Shown here: positions 56,401-64,000 of the stretch, in pieces
Position numbering within the stretch: the first letter of the stretch is position 1
How the letters are laid out: every line of letters begins with the position of its first letter
Origin: an uncultured Acidobacteriota bacterium
GTDB lineage: Bacteria > Acidobacteriota > Polarisedimenticolia > J045
Direction: 5' to 3'
Assembly (NCBI GenBank): GCA_963702425.1
Contig: CAVPCQ010000040.1
Coordinates: 1 to 64,000, forward strand
DNA length: 64,000 nucleotides
The notes under the pieces: generated by a model
Told to the model about the DNA's origin: nothing
The model's database searches: none
The model's input: the letters and a program-made list of their open reading frames with translations, nothing else
Program-made: the position numbers and the translations under genes

Positions 56401-56760
56401 TCACCGCCGCCGCCCCCGCCAATACAACGGTCCGAGCCAAAGGAGCGCATTCGCAACGAACGGTGCACCGATGAAGCCCAACCAGCACACGATCCTGAAT
56501 GGGAGGAGCGACCCAAAGAGCGTGAGCGTCGGAACGGAACATACGAGTGAGCCGGGTATTCCGCTGAGGAGGATGTGCACGTCGTAGTGGCCATCGCCGG
56601 CGCCAAACCCCCACCCGTTTGCCGCAAAGAAGCACGTCCCAAGAGCCATCTGAAAGAGTGGAATGGCTATGCGTCGAACTGCCTGACCTCTCGAGACGGC
56701 GGCGGCGTCCGCACGCCCTTGCGACCGTCGGTCGTGAGCGTCTTCACCGAGGTTCTGCAA
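56401..56760 (-). CDS. Putative membrane immunity protein for cassette C toxin
   Basis: About three TM segments, ANGW/YDV/GIPGSL motifs, homologous to 61776-62201. Start is uncertain. Confidence 0.65.
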   Translation of the reverse strand: MQNLGEDAHDRRSQGRADAAAVSRGQAVRRIAIPLFQMALGTCFFAANGWGFGAGDGHYDVHILLSGIPGSLVCSVPTLTLFGSLLPFRIVCWLGFIGAPFVANALLWLGPLYWRGRRR

Positions 56761-56785
56761 CACCGAGTATTCTCCCGTACGTGAG

Positions 56786-58681
56786 CTACTTCGTGGGGGG
56801 TGACCCGGTCGCACTGCTCGGCGTCTGCGCGTTCTTCGCCTGAATCACAGTGCGGATGCGTCTGATCTTTCCTTCGATCGCCCGTAACAGCGCCGCCTTC
56901 ATCGCTGGATCGGAGCAACTAGCCCAAGTTCGCACTTGGCGCTCGATCTGCTTGAAGTCCACCGGCGCCGCTACTCCACGCCCTGTCTCTCGGTTGAAAC
57001 CGACAATCGCATCGAAGGTGGCGCGCGCCGCCTCCACAAGCCGGTCTGGATTTCGGCTCGTGCGGTCCGGGCTCATGTTCAGCAGGTTCATGAGCGAGTG
57101 CCCAATGCCGACTGAGTAGCCTGCATGGGAGTAGGTATCCTGTGTGACGTGCAGCGCCGTTCCAAGTTCCCACGGGTCATGATGGCCGAGAGCCGCTGTC
57201 ATCAACTCGCCCTGTCTGCTTCCGGTGTTTCCGAATGCGTGCCAGTCCCGTTGGTTCTCCATGGACTCGGAGGCACTGGTATCCAGATCGACGCGCTCGT
57301 CCGCAGCGGCGATCGTAGCAGCGTCGCTCGCCGACGATCCTGCCGCAAGGGCGAGAATCGCGGTCAGGTCGTGATGAACATCTTGGCCATACCGTCCGTC
57401 GGGATCGTAGAAGCGAATCGGATTATCGAAGACGAAGCTGTACCGATTCAACGAAGCGGGGCGCTGTGGATCGCCCATCACGCTGTCGGCACTCAGGAAC
57501 CCCCCCATCCCCGCCCCGTAGTACCGCGCCATCATGTAAGCCAGCCCCGTCGCCAGATCCCGCTCGTGCCCCGTGAACTGCCGCGTGCTCCCCCCGACCG
57601 ACGGCGCCGCGTTCTGCGGCATCCGCGCCCCGTAGGGGTAGTCGTCGTATCCCACGACCACGTACCCCGCTTCGTCCGTCACGTTGCGCAGCGTCCCGAG
57701 GTGGTCGCGGTGGTGGTACCAGTTGACGAAAGCCGGCCCTGCCGGCGGGTCCGGCGGGTCTGGCGCTCCACCGGGGCAGGGATTCATGCCGATCCCCTGC
57801 TCGCCCGCCTCCGCGGAGGGCAGACCGGCCATCGGGCTCGCCGCCGCATCGACGGTCTCCAGGTAGAGCGCGCCACACGGCGCCGACAGTGCCTGCGATG
57901 CCAGCGTGTACGACAGCACGCTCGACGGCAGCGCCGTCGGGGTCAGCAGCACGGTAGTCTGCCCGTCGCTTGATTGGAAGTAGAGGCGCTGGGCTTTCCC
58001 CGTGTCCTGCACCAGGCTCCAGCGCACCACCAAGTTGTTGGACGCCCAGTGGATCGAGAGCGCTCGAACCGGGTTGGGAGAGGTCGCCGTCACGGTCGGA
58101 TCGTACGCCAGGGAGACCGGCGCCGAATAGCCCGATCCGACCTGGCCGTCTTTCCGGATCCGGACCGCGTTCGACTCCTGGGGCGAGAGCGCGCTCTCCG
58201 GCAGCGTGAACCGCCCCTGGGCATCGAGCGTCACCCCCGCGACGCGATTCCGGTAGCCGGAGGGCGCCGCGATGTCCACCGTGTACGATCCGGCGCCCGC
58301 TCCCGAGGTCACCAGGAAGCGCTCGTTCGTGCCGCTGGTCAGCGGGCTATTCGCCGCCATCTCGGGCGGGGCCACGCCGACCTTGCGCTCCACCAGCAGT
58401 TTCCCCAGTCCGTACACGAAGTCCGCCTTCAGCACCGGGCCCCCGCTAGTCGGGGTCTCCACGAACTCCGACAGCGCTTGACCGCCCTCGTCGCGCAGCG
58501 TCAGGACGACCTTCCCATCGCGGCCCATCCGGAACCAGCGCTGCCCGGCGGCGTCGTAGGGAAACGCGGCGTCGGTCATCCGGTTGTCGTTGTTCTCCAG
58601 CACCTGCGGGAACGTGTGCGCGAAATCGTGTCCCGGCGGCTCGGGAACCTGCGTCGTGGACACGCGAGTCTGCGACAGCAT
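56786..58681 (-). CDS. Orphan RHS cassette C with a Zn-PLC/P1-nuclease/HET-C-like toxin
   Basis: RHS core through NPIRFYDPDGR; tip YGQDVH...WHAF...LGTALHVTQDTYSH...GH...PD. Confidence 0.85.
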   Translation of the reverse strand: MLSQTRVSTTQVPEPPGHDFAHTFPQVLENNDNRMTDAAFPYDAAGQRWFRMGRDGKVVLTLRDEGGQALSEFVETPTSGGPVLKADFVYGLGKLLVERKVGVAPPEMAANSPLTSGTNERFLVTSGAGAGSYTVDIAAPSGYRNRVAGVTLDAQGRFTLPESALSPQESNAVRIRKDGQVGSGYSAPVSLAYDPTVTATSPNPVRALSIHWASNNLVVRWSLVQDTGKAQRLYFQSSDGQTTVLLTPTALPSSVLSYTLASQALSAPCGALYLETVDAAASPMAGLPSAEAGEQGIGMNPCPGGAPDPPDPPAGPAFVNWYHHRDHLGTLRNVTDEAGYVVVGYDDYPYGARMPQNAAPSVGGSTRQFTGHERDLATGLAYMMARYYGAGMGGFLSADSVMGDPQRPASLNRYSFVFDNPIRFYDPDGRYGQDVHHDLTAILALAAGSSASDAATIAAADERVDLDTSASESMENQRDWHAFGNTGSRQGELMTAALGHHDPWELGTALHVTQDTYSHAGYSVGIGHSLMNLLNMSPDRTSRNPDRLVEAARATFDAIVGFNRETGRGVAAPVDFKQIERQVRTWASCSDPAMKAALLRAIEGKIRRIRTVIQAKNAQTPSSATGSPPTK

Positions 58682-62201: not shown

Positions 62202-62303
62202 TGCAATTGTAGCCCGCGAACCCGCTACTGCACTCAGGCCCGGAGAAAGAGAGCAGTGACGAGCGCGAGGCGATCTGCCACTCCTTCGTCAGCGTGGCGA
62301 CAC

Positions 62304-64000
62304 TCACTGCTTGGTCGCTGTCAGTTGCGCGGCACCCTGGCTCTGCAACTTCGGTTGGCTCACGGTAGTTCGTATCTTCTTGATCTTGTCCTGAATGACC
62401 CGCAGCAGTGCTGCTTTCTTGTTTGGATCTGAGGTCGCGGCCCAGCTCTTGACGAGCGACTCGATTTGCGAGAAGGGGACCGGCGATCCCGCCGACCGTC
62501 CCGTTTGCGCATTGAAGCTGACAATTGCGTTGTATGTGGCGCGCGCCGCGTTTACGAGTTTATCGGGGTTCCGGGTCGTATCGTCCGGGGACTTCGCCCA
62601 GGGCTTCATGCTTTCTGCGGCATGGCCAAGTCCGTTTCGATACCCCGCGTGAGCGTAGGCATCCTGCTTCACGTGAAGCGCTTCGCCAAGTCCGAGCGTG
62701 GATGAGGTGACGACAGCCTCTTGGAAGAATGCCTGCTGCTGTGCTGTGCAGATTGGGAACGAGTGCCAGCGCGCTTGATTGTCGATCCCTTCCGGTGTCA
62801 CTTTGCTCGCTGGTGTGTTGTCGTCAACGGCCGCGTCCCCGAAGGCGATGGCCGAAGCGTCGGCGTTGCTTGACCCGGCTGCAACCGCGAGCACCGCGGT
62901 GAGGTCGTTGTGGACGTCCTCGCCGTATCGTCCATCTGGATCGCGATATCGGAGCGGATTGCCGAAGGCATAGCTGTACCTGTTGAATGACGACGGCACT
63001 TGCAGTTCCCCTGTGACGGTATCGGCGCTTACGAAGGCCGCCACCGCGCTTCCGTAGTACCGCGCCCCCATGTAGTCCAGCCCCGTCGCCAGGTCCCGCT
63101 CGTGCCCCGTGAACTGCCGCGTGCTCCCCCCGACCGACGGCGTCGCGCTCTGCGGCATCCGCGCGCCGTACGGATAGTCGTCGTACCCCACGACCACGTA
63201 CCCCGCTTCGTCCGTCACGTTCCGCAGCGTCCCGAGGTGGTCGCGGTGGTGGTACCAGTTGACGAAAGCCGGCCCGCTCGGCGGGTCCGGCGGGTCCTGC
63301 CCTCCACCGGGGCAGGGGTTCATGCCGATCCCCTGCTCGCCCGCCTCCGCGGAGGGCAGACCGGCCATCGGGCTCGCCGCCGCATCCACGGTCTCCAGGT
63401 AGAGCGCGCCACACGGCGCCGACAGCGCCTGCGACGCCAGGGTGTACGACAGCACGCTCGACGGCAGCGCCGTCGGGGTCAGCAGCACCGTCGTCTGCCC
63501 GTCGCTGGATCGGAAGAACAGGCGCTGGGCTTTTCCCGTGTCCTGCACCAAGCCCCAGCGCACCACCAGGTTGTTCGACGCCCAGTGGATCGCGAGCGCT
63601 CGGACCGGGTTGGGAGAGGTCGCCGTCACGGCTGGATCGTACGCCAGGGAGACCGGGGCCGAATAGCCCGATCCGACCTGGCCGTCCTTCCGGATCCGGA
63701 CCGCGTTCGACTCCAGGGGCGAGAGCGCGCTCTCCGGCAGCGTGAACCGCCCCTGGGCGTCGAGCGTCACCCCCGTGACCCGATTCCGGTAGCCGGAGGG
63801 CGCCGCGATGTCCACCGTGTACGATCCGGCGCCCGCTCCCGCGGTCACCACGAAGCGCTCGTTCGTTCCGCTCGTCAACGGGCTGTTCGCCGCCATCTCG
63901 GGCGGGGCCACGCCGACCTTGCGCTCCACCAGCAGTTTCCCCAGCCCGTACACGAAGTCCGCCTTCAGCACCGGGCCCCCGCTGGTCGGGGTTTCCACGA
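62304..64000 (-). CDS. RHS protein/cassette A (5'-partial) with a Zn-PLC/P1-nuclease/HET-C-like toxin
   Basis: Open frame runs off the window end. RHS core through NPLRYRDPDGR; tip YGEDVH...WHSF...LGEALHVKQDAYAH...GH...PD. Confidence 0.88.
   Translation of the reverse strand, partial: VETPTSGGPVLKADFVYGLGKLLVERKVGVAPPEMAANSPLTSGTNERFVVTAGAGAGSYTVDIAAPSGYRNRVTGVTLDAQGRFTLPESALSPLESNAVRIRKDGQVGSGYSAPVSLAYDPAVTATSPNPVRALAIHWASNNLVVRWGLVQDTGKAQRLFFRSSDGQTTVLLTPTALPSSVLSYTLASQALSAPCGALYLETVDAAASPMAGLPSAEAGEQGIGMNPCPGGGQDPPDPPSGPAFVNWYHHRDHLGTLRNVTDEAGYVVVGYDDYPYGARMPQSATPSVGGSTRQFTGHERDLATGLDYMGARYYGSAVAAFVSADTVTGELQVPSSFNRYSYAFGNPLRYRDPDGRYGEDVHNDLTAVLAVAAGSSNADASAIAFGDAAVDDNTPASKVTPEGIDNQARWHSFPICTAQQQAFFQEAVVTSSTLGLGEALHVKQDAYAHAGYRNGLGHAAESMKPWAKSPDDTTRNPDKLVNAARATYNAIVSFNAQTGRSAGSPVPFSQIESLVKSWAATSDPNKKAALLRVIQDKIKKIRTTVSQPKLQSQGAAQLTATKQ

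Follow-up and report, generated by a model that had tools for sequence, protein, structure and literature searches.

Paired Rhs toxin tips with a predicted zinc phospholipase C/P1 nuclease fold and their candidate membrane immunity partners in an Acidobacteriota genome

When two related Rhs toxin tips in one genome are each followed by a small hydrophobic protein, do the pairs represent toxin-immunity systems, and on what would such toxins act? This question is raised by a 64,000-nucleotide stretch of contig CAVPCQ010000040.1 from an uncultured Acidobacteriota bacterium (the window), a high-GC bacterial genome in which an array of Rhs modules fills the last 11 kb (about 53,200–64,000, minus strand). 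All four modules, A to D, match the NCBIfam model TIGR03696 (Rhs_assc_core) above its cut-off, their cores share 89–97% DNA identity, and GC content falls from ~70% to about 56–65% in the tips and the genes behind them. The Rhs cores of modules A (62928–64000, TIGR03696 E 2e-16) and C (57392–58681, an orphan core, E 2e-15, 90% identical in DNA to core A over 1,130 bp) both end in a PxxxxDPDGR autocleavage motif. Behind them on the same strand lie toxin tips A (62304–62927, 207 residues) and C (56786–57391, 201 residues), followed by the predicted membrane immunity proteins partner A (61776–62198) and partner C (56401–56763, 120 residues); for the latter, a GTG start at 56763 with GGAGA upstream is likelier than a start at 56814. 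The frame of module A is still open at 64000, where the window stops; rather than an orphan module, A may therefore form the last part of a full-length Rhs gene. Repeated near-identical cores, a PxxxxDPxG boundary, variable lower-GC tips and a small gene directly behind are all features of known Rhs orphan-module arrays.

An earlier note on this DNA proposed that tips A (given there as 62304–62930) and C are paralogous toxins resembling HET-C and zinc-dependent phospholipases C (Zn-PLCs), each paired with a homologous membrane immunity protein. The paralogy is borne out: the tips align end to end with 101 of 201 residues identical (50%, E 1e-56), and every His/Asp motif is common to both. Tips A and C also match Pfam DUF6765 (PF20551) at 33.3 and 39.5 bits against a gathering cut-off of 26.6, a match that covers only the N-terminal sixth of the profile (about 55 of 325 positions; positions 3–58 of tip A) and recurs at E ≤ 0.01 in 98 of 100 tip-family members. 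A search with a two-tip profile returned 486 representatives at E ≤ 0.001 (clusters at 50% identity), mostly Rhs tips. Of these representatives, 150 were listed. The Rhs cleavage motif lies directly upstream in 114 of 151 relatives examined; 17 begin so near the domain that its presence cannot be judged, and the other 20 are arranged differently. Across 153 aligned domains, numbered from the mature N-terminus, H51, H81, D85 and H89 never vary (153/153), and D35 (151), D109 (151), H6 (146) and H98 (132) are nearly as constant. Enzymes of the PLC/P1 superfamily hold three zinc ions with eight His, Asp or Glu side chains. The eight conserved His/Asp residues of the tips follow the order expected for this three-zinc site and, together with Y1, constitute the candidate metal ligands of tip C, as assigned by sequence order.

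The predicted fold leads to the same superfamily. An AlphaFold2 model of tip C, built from 100 sequences, is confident (predicted local distance difference test score, pLDDT, 93.6), compact and all-helical. In a wide structural search of 48,161 chains, the top six matches all belonged to the PLC/S1-P1 nuclease superfamily (root-mean-square deviation, RMSD, 2.9–3.6 over 129–131 aligned residues), and rank 7 reached only Z 4.8. Ranks 1–3 are Zn-PLCs (Z 8.4, 8.3 and 8.0; RMSD 2.9–3.1, 131 aligned), ranks 4–6 are S1/P1 nucleases (Z 6.6–6.0), and re-scoring of Foldseek's 358 chains left this order unchanged with a best Z of 9.3. The match is carried by model residues 1–138, with a basic helical tail (about 140–190) lying outside it, and in each top match the chain's first residue is aligned with residue 1 of the model. 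Several observations weigh against the assignment: Foldseek gave no match at E ≤ 0.001 for the tip C model, the tip shares only 12–15% identity with the solved enzymes, and a Z of 8–9 is modest for an all-helical model. A sequence search against solved structures likewise found no meaningful match. Because the Z values are modest, the superfamily assignment rests on fold and motif jointly, and the two together support placing the tips in the Zn-PLC/S1-P1 superfamily.

The HET-C part of the earlier description calls for correction. No Het-C, Zn-PLC or S1-P1 Pfam model was returned for either tip or for the 100 family members, two distant members of which matched VWA7_N weakly, and HET-C proper was rejected on both motifs and profiles. 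The Tox-HET-C entry of Zhang 2012 (PMC3482391), in its accessible portion, describes an all-alpha domain with an HxxxDxxxH motif, which the tips share as the invariant H81-D85-H89; it predicts that Het-C has the PLC/S1-P1 site and leaves the activity open between the two enzyme types. The same row lists neither RHS repeats nor any immunity family, whereas the present tips are Rhs-borne with partner genes, and their consensus lacks the HxD and Nxx[DE] motifs given there. VgrG–Het-C fusions of unknown function appear in the available text of two further papers (PMC6838775, PMC13055248). In the full-text literature searched, from which subscription papers are mostly absent, DUF6765 is not named, no paper joins phospholipase C P1 with polymorphic toxin immunity, and searches pairing Rhs with Zn-PLC or P1 nuclease returned only Zhang 2012, a Liberibacter paper and reviews; the portion of PMC13018210 at hand contains nothing on the tip family.

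The position of the cleavage site relative to the predicted metal site adds a point beyond the earlier note. DPDGR directly precedes both tips, and the predicted mature N-terminus is a Tyr, at 62927 in tip A and at 57391 in tip C. Across the family, PxxxxDxxG-x followed by X-x4-H is present in 116 of 153 sequences, where X is Tyr in 111, Trp in 4 and Ala in 1; that is, Tyr or Trp stands exactly at the Rhs autocleavage position in 115 of 116 motif-bearing members. In Photorhabdus Rhs1, according to the accessible part of PMC8636562, the catalytic residue is Asp 1338 (DPLGL) and the released toxin starts at residue 1343; the window Tyr sits at the same +5 offset from DPDGR. The available text on Listeria PC-PLC reports that the W1 main chain binds a catalytic metal, that a W1F variant keeps activity and that one added N-terminal residue abolishes it (PMC10576769), and the main chain of the N-terminal Trp of S1 nuclease is likewise described as a metal ligand in the accessible portion of PMC5201275. 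Because the Tyr or Trp at the cleavage position takes the place of this Trp1 with its metal-binding backbone, we infer by analogy that Rhs autocleavage would complete the active site of the tip. In known Rhs arrays cleavage releases the toxin; here it is predicted also to build the active site. With the Zn-PLCs (Bacillus and Listeria PC-PLC, the catalytic domain of clostridial alpha-toxin), the tips share the helical fold, an aromatic residue 1, the His/Asp ligand order and, by prediction, activation through N-terminal processing. They differ in their low identity, a core about 100 residues shorter and extra basic C-terminal helices, and the Zn-PLCs are processed by a propeptide protease, whereas the tip would be processed by the Rhs autoprotease.

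Relatives outside Rhs proteins present the same N-terminal position by other means. In at least 6 of the 13 non-Rhs relatives listed, judged by eye, a signal-peptide-like stretch ends just before Phe/Tyr-x4-His, and nine standalone genes begin Met-x4-His. The latter (L032, L033, L036, L038, L039, L041, L049, L056 and L058) start Met-Gln-Lys-Asp-x-His, so that the initiator Met takes the first, metal-binding place; unlike the Rhs tips, they are 268–367 residues long (in round figures 270–370) and have no small partner gene. They are probably non-toxin enzymes of the DUF6765 family.

We next consider the candidate antidotes. The open reading frames (ORFs) behind tips A and C are both hydrophobic and homologous, as had been claimed (36 of 95 residues identical, 38%, E 3e-13); their local alignment scores 126, and none of 5,000 composition-preserving shuffles reached that score (mean 29, maximum 57). 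With a profile of these two sequences, 317 protein candidates yielded no hit but partner A itself. A genome scan with a 12-sequence tip alignment yielded 67 loci, many from Acidobacteriota metagenome-assembled genomes, and a search iterated from partners A and C over the 6,729 reading frames of these loci recruited three ORFs directly behind tips (L042, L011, L022), together with L021 and, weakly, L001. Of 8,000 candidates then scored with a profile of six sequences (partners A and C plus four from the loci), 377 proteins reached E ≤ 0.1. A hidden Markov model (HMM) of 119 of these relatives, excluding the window ORFs, matched partner C (E 1e-5) and partner A (E 1.2e-5) against a best reversed decoy of E 0.37, and matched nothing else in the whole window; this test is not fully independent, because the 119 relatives were collected with a profile containing A and C. 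At E < 1e-20 among the 6,729 frames, the HMM retrieved only the three ORFs directly behind tips and the fusion L021. We refer to this family as class I.

No named immunity family accounts for class I. The best 120 of the 377 proteins carry no precomputed Pfam domain, the Pfam matches of 121 members include no immunity family (Sensor in 1 member and DUF6223 in 7 were sub-threshold), and partners A and C have no immunity match in NCBIfam or PADLOC. Plasmid records held no match to the tip or to the class I partner. The candidate new family thus stands as unnamed and as linked to the toxin elsewhere, directly behind a tip in three other genomes and in two fusions. Both fusions are in frame: at L021 (6543–7419) a shortened tip continues into half a class I partner, and in P0175 a toxin tail forms the N-terminus of a class I protein. 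Along with L004 (3060–6954), where the tip is fused to a class III partner (see below), they look like products of deletion or of a lost stop.

Class I proteins are about 95 residues long and basic at both ends; a first membrane helix leads into a QGGFGGGHGxFD loop, after which come two short helices and finally a long one. The model of partner C (pLDDT 83) shows two long helices flanking the Gly-rich loop and the two short helices, and a fold search with it returned generic helical matches only (best Z 5.6). As the ends are basic, the sequence suggests a topology with both termini inside and the loop outside. The window copies depart from the family in ways that count against their being functional antidotes: at the motif His, present in 117 of 119 relatives, partner C has Asp and partner A has Glu, and both are divergent, at 19–38% identity to the relatives. 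They could therefore be decayed or non-cognate passengers that no longer protect against toxins otherwise acting as we propose, an idea to which the relics and IS21 insertion in the array and the broken and fused copies elsewhere (L021, L004) lend some colour. We regard it as quite improbable. Both partner frames are open with a third-position GC content of 0.70–0.71, like their tips; the Gly, Asp, Pro, Pro and Asn of the family are retained in A and C; the replacing Asp and Glu can also bind metal; and the near-invariance of the motif partly reflects the search itself, which gathers sequences sharing five-residue words. Judged from these sequences, partners A and C probably protect the producer.

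Linkage across genomes shows that class I is not the only partner of the tip. Among the genes immediately following 68 tip frames with scores of at least 60 bits, class I accounted for 3, class II for 14 and class III for 9. Class II, defined from hand-picked seeds, is another membrane family, marked by a GxGHG loop; class III is a signal-bearing, soluble-type family that appears NTF2-like by eye. For these families Pfam returned nothing above its cut-off and NCBIfam nothing meaningful. A merger of classes I and II was not adopted, as the profile comparison covers the motif only (probability 11–12%; 55% over 19 columns). By sequence, then, the tip has at least three unrelated families of envelope partners, of which class I is just one. 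Signal-bearing right-handed beta-helix proteins also lie behind one tip branch (L053:1356–2381; L064:1980–2984 and 4451–5374) and are possibly a fourth. The rarity of class I (3/68) counts against the mechanism proposed below, as does a toxin-partner linkage computed from the toxin side only.

The genes behind the tips point towards the envelope. Using a hydropathy rule for a signal or membrane segment, an envelope-type gene follows 39 of 48 Rhs-linked tips (2 of 50 dropped at contig edges), against a background of 32 of 272 stops (28 of 300 dropped); related tips within one lineage make these counts non-independent. Inspected by eye, the nine exceptions comprise three in which the toxin gene is broken, interrupted or fused and an envelope partner lies beyond the break, five cases with signal-like or membrane segments just under threshold, and only one, L037, without an evident partner. 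The earlier note had reasoned that a membrane-embedded antidote points to a phospholipase. This argument is weaker than claimed, because envelope-type genes also lie behind other Rhs tips from these loci (9/16, with 1 of 17 dropped and one of the nine apparently spurious), and the difference from 39/48 is slight (Fisher p = 0.09). On sequence evidence an envelope target for the tip is nonetheless favoured.

Taken together, we consider it probable, though by no wide measure, that A and C are interchangeable Rhs toxin-immunity cassettes working as follows. The tip would be a minimal trinuclear-zinc phosphodiesterase, with a PLC/P1 nuclease fold in residues 1–138 and a basic helical tail at about 140–190, that is inactive while joined to the Rhs shell. 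Autocleavage after DPDGR would free Tyr1, whose backbone would supply the missing part of the metal site, the role played by Trp1 in PC-PLC and S1 nuclease. The freed enzyme would most likely attack membrane phospholipids or another envelope phosphoester from the periplasmic side. The downstream protein would be an inner-membrane antidote with both ends cytoplasmic, whose Gly-rich loop on the outer face blocks the incoming enzyme. A bolder generalization, which we offer tentatively and hold to be rather doubtful, is that these tips represent a widespread, undescribed class of antibacterial Rhs toxins: minimal zinc PLCs that are true zymogens, in which the amino group generated by autocleavage completes the catalytic metal site, and that are countered by at least three unrelated families of envelope antidotes, two of which use a membrane-surface Gly-His loop (Asp or Glu in the window copies) as a metal-site plug.

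The choice between phospholipase and nuclease bears most directly on this mechanism. The tip might instead work in the cytoplasm as a nuclease or nucleotidase of the S1/P1 type, with the membrane partner blocking entry through the inner membrane rather than the active site. S1/P1 nucleases do occupy fold ranks 4–6 and have an N-terminal metal ligand, as predicted for the tip, and the spacing from Tyr1 to His6 is nuclease-like rather than PLC-like, a point against the phospholipase. PLCs, however, outscore the nucleases by about 2 Z units in both structural rankings. The charge distribution cuts both ways: the tail is basic (11 Lys+Arg versus 3–4 Asp+Glu), as a nuclease might have it, but the catalytic part is acidic (9 Lys+Arg versus 16–19 Asp+Glu). 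The nine standalone Met-x4-His relatives have no N-terminal export signal and thus indicate that the fold can work in the cytoplasm, whereas the signal-bearing, soluble-type class III (9 directly downstream) fits extracytoplasmic action, and no recurring cytoplasmic partner family was found among the loci examined. The S1/P1 nucleases also have a Lys or Arg three residues after the catalytic Asp, according to the accessible text of PMC5201275; in the tips this position is Lys or Arg in only 15 of 151 and Thr in both window copies, taking Asp35 as the catalytic residue by sequence order rather than by superposition. In favour of this rival, Zhang 2012 leaves both activities open for Het-C. We rate a cytoplasmic nuclease as unlikely.

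An envelope enzyme need not be a phospholipase. The envelope-partner evidence applies equally to a tip whose target is a phosphoester other than a glycerophospholipid, for instance a wall precursor linked to undecaprenyl phosphate or a lipid A phosphate, and the shorter domain (model 1–138 versus PC-PLC chain 1–245 over the aligned range) means that the known PC-PLC substrate pocket need not be retained. The nearest solved relatives are glycerophospholipid PLCs, however, and we give this alternative a marginally smaller chance than the cytoplasmic nuclease. Overall, a glycerophospholipid would be the likeliest substrate.

How did the two pairs arise? In a quick, unfinished tree of 42 tips, in which many forks are open, tips A and C are mutual nearest rows (Shimodaira–Hasegawa-like approximate likelihood-ratio test, SH-aLRT, 92) and group with P0005 and P0006 (97). 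With partners 37–38% identical to each other, the kinship of the pairs fits duplication within one lineage. The earlier note spoke of co-divergence, which in its strict form is unsupported across genomes: the window pair does not group with L011 and L022 on this tree, and class I requires two changes on it, occurring across genomes with separate toxin branches. Between tip C and P0005, 46 of 61 tail residues are identical as against 25 of 56 in the preceding segment, an unevenness that hints at recombination within tips.

If the proposal is correct, it would supply a function for a common unnamed Rhs tip (486 clusters) and for DUF6765, and would put names to three immunity families; the Tox-HET-C entry of Zhang 2012, in its accessible portion, lists none. 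Two points go beyond the earlier note, an active site built by cleavage and a set of three envelope partner families that are interchangeable; both remain predictions from sequence and model. Autocleavage as a chemical on-switch would explain how a producer could safely export such an enzyme, and toxicity screens that use Met-started or N-tagged constructs would score these tips inactive. The system would also offer a direct way to settle phospholipase versus nuclease activity for this branch of the superfamily.

Modules B and D, also on the minus strand, carry unrelated tips. Module B (60179–61792), between A and C, combines a partial Rhs core (TIGR03696) with an HExxH tip that matches Peptidase_M91 weakly (E 0.1). 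This tip is followed by two unannotated ORFs instead of one (59403–60233 and 58781–59449, together spanning 58781–60233), candidate immunity genes with N-terminal hydrophobic stretches; they have no Pfam, NCBIfam or class I HMM match and are unrelated to partners A and C. Module D (54861–56400, TIGR03696 E 3.5e-14), directly after partner C, has a core 95–97% identical in DNA to cores A and C. Its tip is apparently split over two frames (54451–55082), and the weak Lnb_N match of the second ORF (54451–54918, E 0.08) suggests a papain-like tip that is broken; further on, the ORF at 53817–54347 is signal-peptide-like. A fifth Rhs core relic (region 50200–53749) is split by an IS21 element (50602–52916), near which lie an 87-bp imperfect direct repeat (50396–50546) and a 64-bp inverted pair (50422–50485 and 53160–53222). 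Just before the HRDHLG motif, the Rhs cores contain an insertion of roughly 200 residues without YD repeats (about 63270–63900 in module A), which recurs in B, C, D and the relic (53180–53749), has no Pfam match, and may be a domain that gives the shell an adhesion or spacer function. Far from the array, a carbohydrate phosphorylase match extends across three ORFs in different frames (2941–5782, minus strand), pointing to frameshifts or assembly errors.

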